Positions 2,354 through 38,367 of a DNA stretch of 64,000 nt are shown piece after piece; positions within the stretch are counted from its first letter, which is position 1, and every line of letters starts with the position of its first letter. The stretch lies in sequence record PZ445554.1; one strand, 5' to 3'. The position numbers were made by a program, and so were the translations under genes. The notes under the pieces were generated by a model. That model saw only the letters and a list, made by a program, of their open reading frames with translations, made no database searches and had not been told where the DNA came from. The stretch is from a phage.

Positions 2354-3369
2354 TGTGTTGCCTCTACATATAGCTGATTTGCATATTGAATAAGTGCTTC
2401 ACGATCAGAATCAGTGATGTCTGGAATTGCATTAATATACTCTTCCATTAATGTCTGAAGCGATTGAACTTCAACTTCTTCACTGTCATCTGACTCGACA
2501 GAGTTATCAATCTTTGACACAACTCGTAATGAATGCACAACTTTTTCTAGTTCAGATTCGAATTTCGTCAGATTTTTGTCTACTTCAGTTACTATAACAC
2601 GTACTGATAGATTTGTAAAATCTTTATAGTCAATTTTTCCTTTAAATGGATAATGAATTCTACGATGCCAGGTAGTATTGTTTGGAATAAATTCCATTCG
2701 TTCTGTTTCTGTATCAAACATCCAGAACCCACGAGGGTCATTCTCGTCACCTGCTGTTAGTGTCCATGGTGTCCCAATATATCTGACGTTTGCAGCCTCA
2801 GAAATAGTATGGAAGTGACCAGACCACACTTCTTTATAAGTCTTAAGGAAATCAGGTTCAAGACCGTGAGATTTCATTCCTTTATAAAAATAAAATCCAT
2901 TCAGTTCCCAGTGACCAACACAAAAAGAAGCAGATGAAGTTTTGATGTGTTCAAGAATTTCACCAGTATTTTCTTCGCACATCCAAGGAATTAAATCAAT
3001 CAAACACCCGTCAAAATCTACTGTAGTAGGCTTATCATATACTTTAACATTAGGATATTTAGCCAAAAGCTCAGTAGAGGCATTTGGATGCATTACATTT
3101 TTGTAGTGGAGATCGTGATTTCCTACAATAGTATGTAATGTGATTCCAGCGTCATCAAGCATTTGAACTATTTCACGGGCAAACTCCATAGTTTTATGTG
3201 TGATTGCTTTTCGCACATCAAAAATATCACCATATTGAATCCATACAGTAATTCCATTTTTCTTAGAATATTCTATCGCTTGCTTAATTCCATCAATTTG
3301 AATACCGCGAATCCACTCATCATCAGCTTTAACGCCTAAATGCCAATCACCCAAGTTTAGTATTTTCAT
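2350..3369 (-). CDS. 47: recombination nuclease subunit gp47 (Mre11/SbcD-like phosphoesterase)
   Basis: 339 aa; N-terminal LGDWHLG and GNHD calcineurin-like phosphoesterase motifs; adjacent to gene 46 as in T4. Confidence 0.93.
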   Translation of the reverse strand: MKILNLGDWHLGVKADDEWIRGIQIDGIKQAIEYSKKNGITVWIQYGDIFDVRKAITHKTMEFAREIVQMLDDAGITLHTIVGNHDLHYKNVMHPNASTELLAKYPNVKVYDKPTTVDFDGCLIDLIPWMCEENTGEILEHIKTSSASFCVGHWELNGFYFYKGMKSHGLEPDFLKTYKEVWSGHFHTISEAANVRYIGTPWTLTAGDENDPRGFWMFDTETERMEFIPNNTTWHRRIHYPFKGKIDYKDFTNLSVRVIVTEVDKNLTKFESELEKVVHSLRVVSKIDNSVESDDSEEVEVQSLQTLMEEYINAIPDITDSDREALIQYANQLYVEATQ

Positions 3370-3970
3370 GGTGTCTTTTCCATCCTAATTTAGCTGCTTT
3401 TGAAACCAGTTCTTTAATTTTTCCTTTTGTCCATTCAGGACCAGGAGGTTCATGACATAACATTTGCTTAACTCCGTTATTATACCATTTTTTACCTTTA
3501 TTATGTGATGAAGCTTTAAATTTATTTGACCTTCCTTTTGCATAACCTTCTGGAATATAAGGCAAAAAGGCAGATTTTCCTGTTAATGGATCATGTGAAT
3601 GTATATTTCCTTTACAATTATGAGAACCATATAATGGATGATTTTGTCCTTTATTATCTCTTCCAAATGAACCTTTTGGAGCAGCATATGACATATTAAA
3701 GAATAATGGATTTTTAACTGCATCATGCAATCGTTGATAATATAACTCGCATTTAATAGCTTCTTCACGCGTATCAAATTCAGCTAAAATGCATGAATCA
3801 AATAAGTGAGGATTATCTGAAAGCTCTTTATTATAAATTTTCTTATACTTTTTAGATAAAACTGAACCATGATATCCAGCTAAATGCCTATCTAAAGACG
3901 TAGATCCAATATAAAAAGGAGGAAGTTTATCTCCACTATATATTGTTAAATAAGTTATATATTTTTTCAT
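3347..3970 (-). CDS. GIY-YIG family homing endonuclease (Seg-like)
   Basis: 207 aa; N-terminus YLTIYSGDKLPPFYIGST..R..H...ILAEFDTREEA..E fits GIY-(8-11)-YIG with conserved Arg/Glu; basic Gly/Lys-rich C-terminus typical of DNA-binding linker; overlaps gene 47 start by 23 nt. Confidence 0.7.
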   Translation of the reverse strand: MKKYITYLTIYSGDKLPPFYIGSTSLDRHLAGYHGSVLSKKYKKIYNKELSDNPHLFDSCILAEFDTREEAIKCELYYQRLHDAVKNPLFFNMSYAAPKGSFGRDNKGQNHPLYGSHNCKGNIHSHDPLTGKSAFLPYIPEGYAKGRSNKFKASSHNKGKKWYNNGVKQMLCHEPPGPEWTKGKIKELVSKAAKLGWKRHHENTKLG

Positions 3971-29255: not shown

Positions 29256-29576
29256 TTATTCTTTAAATCTAATCAATTTATTCATAGACTTTGAAACTTC
29301 TGCACGAACCTCATGTAGATTTTTGAGCTGTTCAAGACGCTGCGTATAGTAAGCAATTTCATCTTCTTCGAGACAGTCCTGCGAATCTTCTTTAAGATAA
29401 CGTGCATAGTCCTGAAAAGCGTTACGGATTACTTCCTGGAAGTCATCAAGACTTTGAATTTTCTTAGGAGCAGCAGATACACGACGAGGGGCAGTATAAT
29501 ACTCATAACCAAACCCTGCGCTTAATTGAGCCATTAGTATTTTTCCTCTGGTTGGAACACTGCACGACAAGCCCAC
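29256..29576 (-). CDS. hypothetical protein
   Basis: 106-aa ORF (likely start MAQLSAGF). Confidence 0.5.
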
Positions 29577-29836
29577 ATACTGGCTTCTTTGAGTTTCGTT
29601 TTAGCAATAGTTAACTGATCGAGGCTTTCGGCGTAATTCTTCGCGAGTTCATCATCTTCACAGCTATCAAATGCTTCCCAAAATTCATCGTATAAAGCAT
29701 CAAAGATAAGTCCTAAACGAACTTCAGCGTCTTTAATAGCATTTACTTTACCGATTTTTTCGTCGGTATGTGGCTTATAACCTTTAATATCTTCAATCAT
29801 ATTTGACTTCCTCACCAGTACATAAATCGTATTCAA
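29534..29836 (-). CDS. hypothetical small helical protein
   Basis: 100-aa ORF (likely start MIEDIKGY); by position could correspond to T4 vs.4, not verifiable here. Confidence 0.5.
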
Positions 29837-30014
29837 CTAAACGAATAGGTTCATGAATGCCATATCCCTGAACAGAAATTTCTGTAGTAGGATAAATTCC
29901 ATTAATATCACCCATGTTCCATGCTTCGTTAAATTGCTGTTCGCCTGAATTACTAAACCATTCAGCGAAAGCATTTAGCACATCTTCAGAACCTTCAATA
30001 ATTATCTTTGCCAT
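29793..30014 (-). CDS. hypothetical protein
   Basis: 73-aa acidic ORF. Confidence 0.5.
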   Translation of the reverse strand: MAKIIIEGSEDVLNAFAEWFSNSGEQQFNEAWNMGDINGIYPTTEISVQGYGIHEPIRLVEYDLCTGEEVKYD

Positions 30015-30376
30015 TACAAACTCTCGGTAAAGGTACGAGCGATAACATCGCGCTGCTGTTCCGGAGTCAGAGAGTTAAAGCGAACTGCATAACCGGATAC
30101 ACGGATGGTCAGCTGCGGATATTTTTCCGGATGCTTAACTGCATCTTCCAGAGTTTCGCGACGCAGAACGTTAACGTTCAGGTGTTGACCACCTTCAATT
30201 TTAACTGTAGGCTGTTGCTCAATTTCAATTTCACGGGCATGCAAACCGTAGAAAATTTCTGGGTCTACAAAAGAGTCCTCTTTAAAGGTTTTGGAGACAA
30301 TAATTCGTGCTTGAATACCATCTTCAAAATAAATAGTACCTTTATGTGTGCCTTCAAGAATTTGATATGCTTTCAT
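30014..30376 (-). CDS. autonomous glycyl radical cofactor (GrcA/YfiD-like)
   Basis: 120 aa; C-terminal [59 protein letters not shown] is the PFL/GrcA glycyl-radical domain (RVSGY). Confidence 0.85.
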
Positions 30377-30383
30377 ATAAACC

Positions 30384-30713
30384 TCAATTAGAAAATAAAT
30401 TTATCCAAGATTGTTCTTTAATTAAAAATGGCTCAGAATCATATGCCATTAAACTTTGCGTAATTAATCCTTTAAAAGGTCCATCAATAAATTCCATGGT
30501 AAAATATGGAATTTTATTCATTAGCCGTGCATTAGGAGCAGTGCACAAAACTCTGCATCCTTTGAATACGCCTTTTTGTAATTTGTATTGCTTAGGATAA
30601 AATTCACTTAAAATGTTATTTTTTGCCAAAATTTCAAAATGATTCACCAATTTATTTTTAATAGTTTTTGGCGAAAAATAAAGATATTCGAAAAGCTGAG
30701 TGTCTGTCATCAT
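30384..30713 (-). CDS. hypothetical protein
   Basis: ORF 30384..30764 trimmed to ATGATGA-coupled start. Confidence 0.5.
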
Positions 30714-31249
30714 TGCATTCCAATCACAAAAAATTGAGGACGAGTAATACCACCAATGCAACATTTACTATTACAGCAGTAGTGTACAGTGTCAATATGG
30801 ACACTATAAATCTTATCCATATCAGGAGATTTGACAGGCTCATCAATTATATACAAAATTCGCGAAAGCGATAAACCTCTGAACTTGCTTCCTTTATTAC
30901 CAATAAAACTGCGCACAGAATCAGTAAATAAACGAAAACGTATATCATCATTAGAATAACGCGAAAATTCCTTTTTAATGTTATTTGCAGAAATTTTAGC
31001 GTAAGCTGAAGTATTAGAAAGAACAATAACTGTTCCGCCATCATACAGCCAATTAGCAGCAAAGTTAGTCACAGCAATTGATTTACCAGATTGACGTCCA
31101 CCGTCTAGTCGAAGTGTGCAGTACTGTTTAAGTAATTCTTCAAATGGCGGGATATATTCGTTTTTACAAATTTCTTCTACTCTAGCATCAGAATGGTGTG
31201 TAAAAGCATTCATCAGGGATAGATAAGGACCAGTTAAAAATGTTCTCAT
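30710..31249 (-). CDS. small P-loop NTPase-like protein
   Basis: 179 aa; Walker A GGRQSGKS and Walker B-like ILYIIDEP. Confidence 0.55.
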   Translation of the reverse strand: MRTFLTGPYLSLMNAFTHHSDARVEEICKNEYIPPFEELLKQYCTLRLDGGRQSGKSIAVTNFAANWLYDGGTVIVLSNTSAYAKISANNIKKEFSRYSNDDIRFRLFTDSVRSFIGNKGSKFRGLSLSRILYIIDEPVKSPDMDKIYSVHIDTVHYCCNSKCCIGGITRPQFFVIGMQ

Positions 31250-31389
31250 TTCTTCTCTCTAAGTTTGGGCCATTCCATGGCGCATGAATTGTCCATTTCT
31301 GTATTTACCCATTACCGCGCTTTGGCTCGACCTTATCACAGGTTGGCGGGAATCCCTCATAGAATCATGAGGTCCAGGTTGTTCCCATA

Positions 31390-31863
31390 TTATTTGAACG
31401 ATTTAACGTACTGAATAGAACCTTTACTATTCACGAAAGCGATTTTACCATTTTTATTATACATGGTAGCAGTACGTTGATAGCCATAAGTTTGTTTACC
31501 AGATTGATAACCAACTAATGCAAAATTATCTTCACCCATTTTATTCTGTTTAGCGCGAATGCGTTCATGACCATGTGCCATAAGAACCTTAGCATCACCA
31601 GTTGCAATGGATCGACGAGTTTTTTCATCTTCAACTGTATTAACAAAGTCGTCAAATGAATCAAATTTAGCATGAGATTTATTATACAATTTTCCATCTA
31701 CTGCATAATTATATCCCTGTACATCCATCTCAACTTCTGTACCATCATCCAATACAGCAGTGATTTTTTGACCTTTTTTAAATTTCAAAAGATCAGTAAA
31801 AGATTCAGCAATAATTTGAGAATTAATAGCTGCTTCAGTAATAAATTCTTGATATGTTTTCAT
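31390..31863 (-). CDS. internal protein-like (capsid targeting sequence-bearing)
   Basis: 157 aa; N-terminus MKTYQEFITEA matches the T-even internal-protein targeting leader. Confidence 0.6.
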   Translation of the reverse strand: MKTYQEFITEAAINSQIIAESFTDLLKFKKGQKITAVLDDGTEVEMDVQGYNYAVDGKLYNKSHAKFDSFDDFVNTVEDEKTRRSIATGDAKVLMAHGHERIRAKQNKMGEDNFALVGYQSGKQTYGYQRTATMYNKNGKIAFVNSKGSIQYVKSFK

Positions 31864-31872
31864 ATGTTTCCT

Positions 31873-32289
31873 TTAAATGTAAATATTTTTGCCGTAATAC
31901 TTGTACCAGTGTGGCTTCATTAAAATTTTTTCATCAAGTCGTTGTTGACTCAATTTAATAGCTGATTTGCATGGATTATAATCATTTTTCCATTCTGCTG
32001 GAATATCGCTGATGTCAGGAACTTCAGTATCTTTTATACTGAACCCGCGTTTTAAGCATTCCGTTATAATGTCTAATTGACGCTTTCGCAAAAATTCTAA
32101 CTTATCGTAAAAGAAAGTAACATGACCAGAACCTAAAATAAATTTAGAAGATATTTTAAAATCTTTAACGCGCTTACCGTTTGCCACATGCTTACGAACT
32201 ATACCAAAAACACGTGGCAATTCACGGTATTCTGCTATTAAATGTTGATCAGCAAGTTCAGATACTAAAGTCAAATTAATACGAGTCAT
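31873..32289 (-). CDS. denV: endonuclease V (pyrimidine-dimer DNA glycosylase)
   Basis: 138 aa; [43 protein letters not shown] recognised as T4 DenV. Confidence 0.92.
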
Positions 32290-32314
32290 TTTATCCCTCC
32301 AAGTAACTGTGAAT

Positions 32315-32344
32315 ATACTATCACAATTCTAGGAGAAAGTAAAC
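32315..32344 (-). promoter_or_regulatory. T4-type early promoter upstream of denV
   Basis: GTTTAC-N18-TAGTAT (minus), GGAGGGA RBS follows. Confidence 0.45.
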
Positions 32345-32348
32345 AACT

Positions 32349-32879
<531 letters not shown>

Positions 32880-37412: not shown

Positions 37413-37489
37413 TGGCCAGGGTGAAAGGATTCTAACCTTTAACCTGCGGTTTAGAGGACCGCTACTCTATACAATTGAGTTACACCCCG
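37413..37489 (-). tRNA. tRNA-Arg (anticodon TCT)
   Basis: Cloverleaf: acceptor CGGGGTG/CACCCTG, D-stem ACTC/GAGT, anticodon stem GCGGT/ACCGC loop CCTCTAA, T-arm AAAGG-TTAGAAT-CCTTT, CCA encoded; unusual C33. Confidence 0.6.
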
Positions 37490-37615
37490 TAATTAGTTCA
37501 CAGCAATACCTACTCCAACAATCAAGATGTCTTCACACGAAATTAAGAGAAGAGTGATCAGTTCAACCCCTATAATCGCGTCAAGTAGATATTAATGTGA
37601 CAACTGTCACAAGTT

Positions 37616-37690
37616 TGGCGGACGTGATAGGATTCGAACCTATAACCAATCGCTTAACAGGCGATCGCTCTGCCATTGAGCTACACATCC
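37616..37690 (-). tRNA. tRNA-Asn (anticodon GTT)
   Basis: Acceptor GGATGTG/CACGTCC, D-arm GCTC-AATGGCA-GAGC, anticodon loop CTGTTAA, T-arm ATAGG-TTCGAAT-CCTAT, GCCA 3' end. Confidence 0.7.
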
Positions 37691-37694
37691 AAAT

Positions 37695-37781
37695 TGGTGG
37701 GGAGTGGTGGAGTCGAACCACCCGAGTCGCAATGACAATGAATTTACAGTCCACACCGCTACCTCTACGGGATAACTCCCC
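37695..37781 (-). tRNA. tRNA-Tyr (anticodon GTA)
   Basis: Class II tRNA, long variable arm; acceptor GGGGAGT/ACTCCCC, anticodon loop CTGTAAA, T-arm GGTGG-TTCGACT-CCACC, CCA encoded. Confidence 0.6.
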
Positions 37782-37794
37782 CTAATTCGTAATT

Positions 37795-37869
37795 TGGTGA
37801 CCCTGGGTGGAATTGAACCACCATCTGGCGATTATGAGTCGCTTGCTTGAACCTTCCAGCTACAGGGCC
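37795..37869 (-). tRNA. tRNA-Ile (anticodon CAT, lysidine type)
   Basis: Anticodon stem-loop GCGACTCATAATCGC identical to E. coli tRNA-Ile2; acceptor GGCCCTG/CAGGGTC; T-arm GGTGG-TTCAATT-CCACC; CCA encoded. Confidence 0.65.
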
Positions 37870-37870
37870 T

Positions 37871-37946
37871 TGGTGCTGATTGACGGAATCGAACCGCCGA
37901 CGTCCTCATTACAAGTGAGGTGCTCTACCTACTGAGCTAAATCAGC
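37871..37946 (-). tRNA. tRNA-Thr (anticodon TGT)
   Basis: Acceptor GCTGATT/AATCAGC, D-arm GCTC-AGTAGGTA-GAGC, anticodon stem CCTCA/TGAGG loop CTTGTAA, T-loop TTCGATT, CCA encoded. Confidence 0.7.
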
Positions 37947-37951
37947 AAAAC

Positions 37952-38041
37952 TGGCGGAGGCGATAGGATTTGAACCTATGAGTCGCCGGAGCGACTGCCG
38001 GTTTTCAAGACCGGTGCATTAAACCACTCTGCCACGCCTCC
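37952..38041 (-). tRNA. tRNA-Ser (anticodon TGA)
   Basis: Class II; acceptor GGAGGCG/CGCCTCC, anticodon stem CCGGT/ACCGG loop CTTGAAA, long variable arm, T-arm ATAGG-TTCAAAT-CCTAT, CCA encoded. Confidence 0.7.
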
Positions 38042-38043
38042 AG

Positions 38044-38117
38044 TCTCCGTGGCAGGATTTGAACCTACGACATTCTGCTCCCAAAGCAGACGCTCTACCA
38101 AACTGAGCTACACGGAG
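38044..38117 (-). tRNA. tRNA-Pro (anticodon TGG)
   Basis: Acceptor CTCCGTG/CACGGAG, D-arm GCTC-AGTTTGGTA-GAGC, anticodon stem TCTGC/GCAGA loop TTTGGGA; CCA not encoded. Confidence 0.65.
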
Positions 38118-38127
38118 TAAATTAAAT

Positions 38128-38201
<74 letters not shown>

Positions 38202-38206
38202 AAATT

Positions 38207-38293
38207 TGGTGCGAGAAGTGGGACTCGAACCCACAAGGAAATCATTCCGCAGCATTTTAAGTGCTGTGCCTTTACCAATTTGACCATTCTCGC
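38207..38293 (-). tRNA. tRNA-Leu (anticodon TAA)
   Basis: Class II; GCGAGAATGGTCAAATTGGTAAAGGCACAGCACTTAAAATGCTGCGG...GGGTTCGAGTCCCACTTCTCGCACCA recognised as T4 tRNA-Leu. Confidence 0.8.
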
Positions 38294-38294
38294 G

Positions 38295-38367
38295 CTGGGA
38301 ATAAAGGACTCGAACCTTTGCATCCTGGAATCAAAATCCAGTGCCTTACCAACTTGGCTAATTCCCA
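38295..38367 (-). tRNA. tRNA-Gln (anticodon TTG)
   Basis: Acceptor TGGGAAT/ATTCCCA, anticodon stem CTGGA/TCCAG loop TTTTGAT, T-arm AAAGG-TTCGAGT-CCTTT; CCA not encoded; 1 nt from tRNA-Leu. Confidence 0.7.

Follow-up and report, generated by a model that had tools for sequence, protein, structure and literature searches.

A T4-type vs.8 gene encoding a putative terminase-like P-loop protein lies behind a covarying non-coding RNA in a Tequatrovirus genome

The gene described here lies on the minus strand of a stretch of phage DNA 64,000 nucleotides long (sequence record PZ445554.1; this whole stretch is referred to as the window). The window is a Tequatrovirus genome, as seen from its neighbouring genes and from megablast: positions 29500-32500 matched 834 phage records with best identities of 97-98%, and the matches listed were all T4-like coliphages and close relatives. 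A preliminary description of the open reading frame at 30710-31249 had called its product a small P-loop protein of unknown function with a Walker A and a Walker B box. Both boxes, GGRQSGKS and ILYIIDEP, are present in the 179-residue translation, and the open reading frame is, on sequence grounds, the orthologue of vs.8 of phage T4, coupled to vs.7, the gene that follows, and headed by a conserved structured RNA. The features on which the analysis turns are the following.

30710-31249, minus strand: vs.8 coding sequence, 179 residues and stop, ATG start (from the list of open reading frames, phrog_1488, the annotation of phages AR1, ime09 and T4, and the ratio of non-synonymous to synonymous substitution rates, dN/dS)
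31079-31102, minus strand: Walker A box (P-loop) GGRQSGKS, residues 50-57, with a terminase-style arginine, R52, inside the loop; invariant in an alignment of 19 sequences
30836-30859, minus strand: Walker B box ILYIIDEP, residues 131-138, with the catalytic-type pair D136-E137 and the invariant R124-G125 before it (from the alignment and hhalign)
30713-30733, minus strand: C-terminal strand FFVIGMQ, residues 173-179 (F173, G177 and Q179 invariant; last strand of the model, 172-176)
30707-30713, minus strand: ATGATGA junction, in which the vs.8 stop TGA (30712-30710) overlaps the vs.7 ATG (30713-30711), read from the sequence
30384-30713, minus strand: vs.7, 109 residues (MMTDTQ...), phrog_2049 at E 3.7e-54
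31250-31392, minus strand: conserved structured non-coding RNA of 140-170 nt (from a covariance model, compensatory pairs and conservation)
Within the RNA: a 5' hairpin domain; a core, CCUGUGAUAAGGUCGAGCCAAAGCGCGGUAA, at 31312-31342; and a hairpin, GCCAUGGAAUGGC, near the ribosome-binding site

The window protein matches phrog_1488 over its full length (E 3.9e-79, residues 3-179 on profile positions 2-177 of 177), and the same profile is matched by all 40 members of the family alignment A2. Residues 41-219 of T4 Vs.8 (NP_049732; PHROG 1488) are identical to it at 177 of 179 positions, and the name vs.8 is used for this gene in the records of phages AR1, ime09 and T4. In T4 the gene holds the same position before vs.7 and vs.6 and carries the same leader sequence. 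At the protein level the finding is already known, vs.8 having been recorded as an open reading frame for decades, and its novelty is low because the gene is T4 vs.8, recently characterised in outline. The words “unknown function” are still literally true, and PHROGs files phrog_1488 under them.

The T4 RefSeq coding sequence differs in that it begins 40 codons further upstream, giving a product of 219 residues with a 40-residue N-terminal extension (T4 NC_000866 64793-64912; locus L006 3294-3413). In the counterpart of this extension in the window, 31250-31369, the frame is interrupted by a TAG that precedes the ATG at 31249 by four codons. The 179-residue reading is right because of this upstream stop and because the upstream stretch is the non-coding conserved RNA; the T4 extension is probably an annotation artefact. 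Some database clusters call vs.8 at 195-196 residues, akin to the long RefSeq call. Several GenBank phage records label vs.8 and vs.7 as “endoribonuclease” or “RegB domain-containing”, without sequence support, and these labels appear to have spread from the nearby regB gene.

Conservation of vs.8 was followed by tblastn, which found the gene in 1010 phage records, full length in 1008 of them, at identities down to about 37%; Klebsiella, Serratia, Erwinia and Salmonella T4-like genera stand at that end of the set. Against relatives of 88-98% identity the dN/dS of vs.8 is 0.08-0.12. The gene is under purifying selection and is a real gene, not a chance open reading frame. The Walker A context reads LRLDGGRQSGKSIAV and the Walker B context SRILYIIDEPVK. 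Across the 19 aligned sequences, which reach down to 40% identity, the invariant residues are D49, G50, G51, R52, Q53, S54, G55, K56, R113, R124 and G125, together with I134, I135, E137, P138, F173, G177 and Q179, and D136 is nearly so. Length and motifs are kept down to 33-40% identity across Tevenvirinae genera. A HMMER search of 1.84 billion representatives gave just 50 relatives at E ≤0.001, all of 57-259 residues, and by this search the family is narrow and phage-borne. Seven remote relatives (P0056, P0058, P0060, P0064, P0065, P0067 and P0068) have histidine for lysine in the P-loop (G-H-[ST], not G-K-[ST]), and their Walker B reads D-[VCS] or lacks an acidic pair; judged from these motifs, they appear to be variants of this small fold without catalytic activity.

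That vs.8 is the decaying remnant of a terminase gene duplication, or encodes a functionless protein, is exceedingly improbable. The protein is short and belongs to no curated family, and its residues 157-167 are variable, Cys-rich and modelled at low confidence, as might be expected of a relic; a dN/dS of about 0.1, the length and motifs kept to 33-40% identity, the conserved coupling to vs.7 and the EcAvs2 phenotype (both below) speak against it. For practical purposes, the selection and conservation data refute the decay reading.

The description of the protein as small, with a P-loop and shorter than most ATPases, holds. The structural check set beforehand for the P-loop assignment, modelling with AlphaFold2 followed by Foldseek, gave a RecA-like P-loop domain. 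The model (predicted local distance difference test, pLDDT, 81; predicted template modelling score, pTM, 0.83) is a single alpha/beta domain with five strands (45-48, 73-78, 107-111, 131-136 and 172-176) alternating with helices, and disorder is confined to the variable Cys-rich loop of residues 160-167. Its best matches in the PDB were RecA domains of superfamily 1 and 2 (SF1/SF2) helicases (SLFN11, RadD, DSH9, RecD and DDX53), the ATPase that packages phi29 DNA (5hd9) and the large-terminase ATPase of P74-26 (4znk/7ks4), with probabilities of 0.97-1.0 and template modelling (TM) scores of 0.37-0.51. Assigned from the model strands and these neighbours, the predicted structure is a RecA-like/ASCE P-loop domain. 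Small P-loop proteins of about 145-180 residues in BFVD, from Proteus phage phiP4-3, Vibrio phage JSF10, Aeromonas phage Aes012 and Pseudomonas phages 201phi2-1 and PhiPA3, resemble Vs.8 at probability 1.0 (TMq 0.45-0.66); all are uncharacterised, and the likeness is at fold level, with 10-25% identity. Nothing significant for Vs.8 was found in Pfam, NCBIfam or PADLOC, and a PDB sequence and profile search gave marginal matches only (a TraB-like coupling protein and FtsY, E ~0.07). A “Conotoxin” match (E 0.003) was discounted as spurious, since it stems from the Cys-rich residues 157-167.

Recurrent profile matches and the order of the motifs point to homology with the large terminase. The TerL profile phrog_2 matched the window protein at E 1.2e-5 and 18 of the 40 family members (best 3.9e-8), and Pfam Terminase_6N (PF03237) matched 16 of the 40 (best 1.4e-4). 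Aligned by hhalign with gp17 of phage AR1, GGRQSGKS falls on LSRQLGKT (residues 160-167) co-linearly with the later motifs: FRG (R124-G125) on the VRG of VRGNSF, and YIIDEP on the IYIDEC of IYIDECAF. By positional comparison by eye, the final strand FFVIGMQ would be the counterpart of KIIITTT in gp17. The two proteins share the order strand, P-loop with arginine, helix, strand, helix, R-G, hhhhDE, helix and final strand, and two marks of terminases, a Walker A box with an internal arginine (R52) and an hhhhDE Walker B box, are found in Vs.8. The terminase C (coupling) motif, T-T-T or S-S-T, is absent: G177-M178-Q179, also the C terminus, stands in its place. Absent, too, is the two-domain architecture of subdomains I and II followed by a C-terminal RNase H-like nuclease: Vs.8 has 179 residues against 610 in gp17, and its model is a single domain.

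On the alignment and profile evidence Vs.8 is a free-standing, minimal domain paralogous to N-subdomain I in the ATPase of T4-type large terminases. With that subdomain it shares the ASCE fold, the RQxGK[ST] P-loop, the R-G before Walker B, the hhhhDE motif and a co-linear secondary structure, whereas only about 140 of the 610 gp17 residues have a Vs.8 counterpart. No terminase was returned directly by the HMMER search of the 1.84 billion representatives; as this search gave only 50 small proteins, one round fails to bridge Vs.8 to TerL. The link is based on the recurrence of sub-threshold PHROG and Pfam matches, on hhalign and on published PSI-BLAST. Vs.8 has no counterpart of the first 150 residues of the terminase, of subdomain II or of the nuclease, and is therefore predicted to be unable to package DNA alone.

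It could instead regulate packaging, as a truncated ATPase that binds gp16, gp17 or the portal. Such a protein might enter or cap the pentameric motor, whether to postpone or adjust packaging or as a poison for the terminase of a co-infecting phage or satellite. The gp17 region to which Vs.8 is homologous is precisely the one that builds the motor ring and carries the nucleotide site, and the invariant R113 and R124 could be trans-acting fingers. We nevertheless consider a packaging regulator unlikely: the gp17 gene is one of the late packaging genes, but vs.8 lies in the accessory vs block far from them (in AR1 over 30 kb separate it from gene 17), Vs.8 has G-M-Q in place of the T-T-T by which terminases couple hydrolysis to translocation, and relatives outside the vs.8 group are remote and few (the 50 representatives at E ≤0.001), although terminase is universal in tailed phages.

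The coupling of vs.8 to its neighbour, also part of the preliminary description, is read directly on the minus strand, where 30718-30702 is ATG CAA TGA TGA CAG AC. It was compared in 37 T4-like loci (the window, T4 and 35 IMG/VR contigs). In nearly all of them the vs.8 stop either overlaps the start codon that follows or lies directly against it (CAATGATGA or CAATAATG), and in most the gene that follows is a Vs.7 homologue with the core GPFKG...C.AP..LMN..P.F..EFI.GP.KG..SL..YD. Vs.7 itself is present in 930 phage records. The vs.8-vs.7 overlap is conserved across genera, which is new in this analysis, and the pair looks like a two-gene module. The AlphaFold2 model of Vs.7 (pLDDT 88.9) consists of a small beta-barrel preceded by two N-terminal helices. 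Foldseek gave weak KOW/SH3-like matches for the barrel (Kin17 KOW, Spt5 KOW5, NusG and ribosomal L24-type; E 0.03-1), and we tentatively describe the modelled barrel as KOW/SH3-like, an assignment likewise new in this analysis. Other genera have short forms of Vs.7, of 76-88 residues, that lack the N-terminal helices. Pfam PF26834 is recorded on database homologues of Vs.7; the local Pfam copy gave no such match.

Upstream of vs.8, the 140 nt between the gene and ip, which encodes an internal virion protein, are about 95% identical to T4 despite a different upstream gene. Blocks within this stretch hardly vary even in genera whose Vs.8 has diverged to 33-45% identity. In 20 of the 23 loci compared, stop codons interrupt every reading frame of the element, whose GC fraction is about 0.48 against 0.35 for the gene. 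A coding role was rejected in view of these stops and of blocks that change their relative frame. A structure of eight helices and 33 pairs was drawn by hand from compensatory changes, and its helices are as follows.

P1: GGGAA/UUCCC in the T4 group; elsewhere AAAGG/CCUUU, AAAGC/GCUU, AAAGA/UCUUU or GGGAG/CUCCC
P2/P3: inner hairpin domain, including the compensatory loss of one C:G pair
Pa: CCC/GGG, CUGG/CCAG, ACC/GGU, ACU/AGU or CGCG/UGCG; encloses Pb and Pc
Pb: invariant hairpin ACCU-GUAAUA-AGGU
Pc: GC-loop-GC
P4: ACAU/AUGU versus ACAA/UUGU
P5: GCCA-AGGAA-UGGC versus GGCA...UGCC

In a MAFFT alignment 87.7% of cells are paired under this structure, compared with 22-46% when the partners are slid, and 11 pairs show double changes. 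Covariation scores 0.198, compared with 0.094 in shuffles, and none of 500 shuffles reached the observed value. A covariance model built on this alignment detects the element exactly once in the window, at 31247-31392 (116.5 bits, E 8e-36). Among 46 distinct aligned hits, 20 of the 33 pairs are compensatory and 88.8% of cells are paired, in an alignment that was fitted to the model and leans towards the structure. Frequent G-U pairs identify the folded strand as the sense strand of vs.8. The structure had to be drawn by hand because automatic folding fell short: RNAalifold on the MAFFT alignment gave only nine pairs, and single-sequence folding did no better than shuffles (z -0.35).

Two further identities of the element were rejected. 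Scans for sigma-70 promoters and terminators stayed at chance level, and the spacing of a candidate -35/-10 pair is not conserved across lineages. The promoter-early stem-loop (PeSL) cassettes of T4-like phages consist of a short terminator and promoter with one simple stem-loop, in many copies dispersed over hyperplastic regions (PMC4122927). The element is not a PeSL cassette because these are short, simple and multi-copy, whereas it is present once in the window, spans 140-170 nt with eight helices, and covaries.

One full copy of the RNA was found in every T4-like locus searched except L040 (for instance at 3299-3445, minus strand, in L006 and at about 2800-3000 in L007-L041), and in T4-like phages it always heads vs.8, or the ip gene and then vs.8. 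In some Klebsiella-type phages (L022-L024, L035, L073 and L089) the RNA was seen ahead of the ip gene rather than of vs.8. A partial tandem repeat of the core follows the element in some Enterobacter/Klebsiella-type T4-like loci (L016 2710-2990, L027 2717-2990 and L115), with a diverged repeat core such as CCUGUAAUAAGGCCAGUCCGCGACGGUAAGGGG in L115.

The core, consisting of Pa, Pb, Pc and the 5' hairpin, extends beyond T4-like phages: to rV5-like phages (~138 kb), to contigs of about 46 kb (L055 5301-5415 and L080 8714-8827, both on the minus strand), to other contigs and to records labelled as Salmonella, Campylobacter and Pseudomonas phages; a further copy lies at 1274-1407 in L109. The shared core reads (Pa)-AA-CCUGUAAUAAGG-UCGAGC-N5-6-GCGGUAA-(Pa'), with the short form CCUGUAAUAAGGUCGAGC-N5-6-GCGGUAA. 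Many of the non-T4 contigs that were inspected have a transfer RNA (tRNA) cluster no more than a few hundred bases from it, usually on the same strand. The window has a tRNA cluster of its own, with ten genes at 37413-38367 on the minus strand (Gln, Leu, Gly, Pro, Ser, Thr, Met, Tyr, Asn and Arg) and a gap of 126 nt between tRNA-Asn and tRNA-Arg; within 37413-38367 the covariance model of the vs.8 leader found no match. The roughly 600 nt around the motif in L055 and L080 hold repeated structured modules, e.g. CACAACACACAACAGGUAAUG and CAUUUCCGUUGUGACGAAAGC, in long non-coding regions upstream of tRNA clusters. These modules may be further uncharacterised phage RNAs.

In a scan of 185,579 genomes of bacteria and archaea a single, doubtful match came up, so the element is a phage motif and its origin as a copied host RNA was rejected. 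Rfam gave no match at E ≤1 in the window region and eight T4-like loci, and none at E ≤0.1 in eight non-T4 loci, other than to tRNAs and group I introns lying elsewhere. No RNA is annotated at the element in the phage records listed, among 1036 with a BLAST match, and a literature search by sequence strings of the element found nothing. The covarying RNA is the most novel feature of the neighbourhood, present in about 1000 sequenced phages including T4, and in T4-like phages it stands at the head of the operon for Vs.8 and for two anti-defence sponges, Vs.4 and Vs.3. One possibility is a leader that responds to a ligand or a protein and so controls the anti-defence genes; another is an autonomous RNA such as a processing signal or a decoy. 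Speculatively, the GGA-containing hairpin loop beside the ribosome-binding site suggests a protein-binding translational operator, and the tRNA-cluster contexts suggest an autonomous or processing-related RNA, which is equally a speculation.

The RNA and Vs.7 also bear on the idea that Vs.8 is a nucleic-acid-dependent nucleoside triphosphatase, a helicase-like protein with a single RecA domain that would work with Vs.7 on RNA or DNA, e.g. on its own structured leader or on host transcripts. The top Foldseek matches of Vs.8 are domain 1 of SF1/SF2 helicases, the Vs.7 fold is typical of nucleic-acid and ribosome binders, and a structured RNA stands ahead of the operon. Yet one RecA domain cannot make the inter-domain cleft of SF1/SF2 enzymes, and of the helicase motifs Vs.8 has only I and II. 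Moreover, the profile evidence prefers terminase over helicase families, the KOW match of Vs.7 is weak (E 0.03 or worse), and the RNA element also occurs in phages and positions without vs.8. An enzyme of this kind thus appears improbable to us.

For the preferred reading, in which the terminase-type core takes part in phage-host conflict, the gene block and published work on T4 provide the evidence. vs.8 heads the block vs.8-vs.7-vs.6-vs.5-vs.4-vs.3, which is rich in anti-defence genes. Vs.4 is known from the literature as a cGAMP-binding, sequestering protein of the Acb2 type. Vs.3 is the type IV Thoeris sponge TadIV-1, and each of Vs.3-Vs.8 has been expressed on a plasmid from “the promoter of vs.8” (PMC13243611). 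The gene is a good candidate for a counter-defence or immune-trigger function because the block that it heads contains two proven anti-defence sponges. Vs.8 would moreover represent a strongly conserved ATPase, with catalytic motifs intact at the sequence level, in the best-studied phage.

A study published in Nat Commun in August 2026 arrived at Vs.8 in an AlphaFold 3 screen of T4 proteins against EcAvs2 (PMC13601566). It is described there as an uncharacterised ATPase-like protein, similar to the T4 terminase ATPase in sequence and structure, Walker motifs included. Co-expression of Vs.8 with EcAvs2 was toxic, and AlphaFold 3 placed Vs.8 in the terminase pocket (interface predicted template modelling score, ipTM, 0.84), i.e. 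in the pocket of the immune sensor that also binds gp17 (PMC13601566). The window protein differs at two of 179 residues from the T4 protein reported as toxic. Two other non-terminase proteins, Ksap1 and Ksap2 of Dhillonvirus and Stephanstirmvirinae, likewise activate Avs2 on co-expression, and are small lineage-restricted proteins with a terminase-ATPase-like sheet (PMC13601566). They belong to other phage groups than Vs.8, their likeness to it is by description only, and Vs.8, unlike them, keeps complete Walker motifs. The study leaves the role of Vs.8 open and raises the possibility that activators other than terminase are anti-defence proteins for which Avs2 has acquired recognition (PMC13601566).

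The following mechanism would accommodate these data. Vs.8 is predicted to bind ATP-Mg through K56 and S57, and would probably hydrolyse ATP in an oligomer or with a partner, given that E137, R113 and R124 are invariant, D136 is nearly so, and a lone RecA-like domain needs a second subunit. Its ATP-bound, terminase-like face would be read by the bacterial STAND sensor EcAvs2, as judged from the toxicity reported on co-expression. Vs.8 may act as an anti-defence or decoy factor against systems that monitor terminase, or phage proteins that bind ATP; at least one host sensor would in turn have come to detect it. That Vs.8 is such a terminase look-alike in the phage-host immune contest, both interfering with host surveillance and detected by it, is put forward tentatively, and as a whole we regard it as rather doubtful.

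Several points weigh against the terminase-type, immune-contest reading. The Foldseek comparison places helicase RecA domains level with terminases, at modest TM scores (0.37-0.51). Terminase_6N stays below its curated threshold on the window protein (12.7 bits against a cut-off of 22, E 0.1), and every single-profile terminase match is likewise sub-threshold; the hhalign probability, for the single gp17 sequence of phage AR1, is 11.7%. ATP binding and hydrolysis are motif-based predictions. Catalysis appears dispensable for the fold family overall, because distant relatives carry K-to-H changes in Walker A and lack the Walker B glutamate. In the K-to-H lineages the fold must work without hydrolysis, and binding or a decoy function therefore fits better than a motor. 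The Avs2 datum makes Vs.8 a trigger and not an inhibitor, the opposite of a simple decoy, and activation was obtained by over-expression, not in infection (PMC13601566). The anti-defence role itself rests on guilt by association.

With these points set against the evidence above, we judge it fairly probable that the open reading frame is a vs.8 orthologue encoding a minimal terminase-type ATPase core, coupled to Vs.7 and with the immune contest as the most probable of its proposed roles. That the locus combines a new class of structured phage RNA with a Vs.8 that is possibly a terminase mimic evolved against terminase-sensing immunity is, for both parts jointly, given not quite an even chance.

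The genes around this module are as follows.

32349-32843: T4 lysozyme gene e
31873-32289: denV
31390-31863, minus strand: ip, internal virion protein of 157 residues with the capsid-targeting start MKTYQEFITEA (DUF7412 at E 5.7e-96; phrog_3155)
30014-30376, minus strand: vs.6, GrcA-like glycyl-radical protein (Gly_radical at E 2.5e-18)
29256-30376, minus strand: vs.6, vs.5, vs.4 and vs.3, by synteny with T4

The gene order e-denV-(ip)-vs.8-vs.7-vs.6(GrcA), looked for as the positional mark of the Vs.8 family, is thus found in the window, where the ip gene stands between denV and the RNA leader. In T4, by contrast, vs.8 comes directly after denV with no ip gene between them, and ipII and ipIII lie between e and denV instead.

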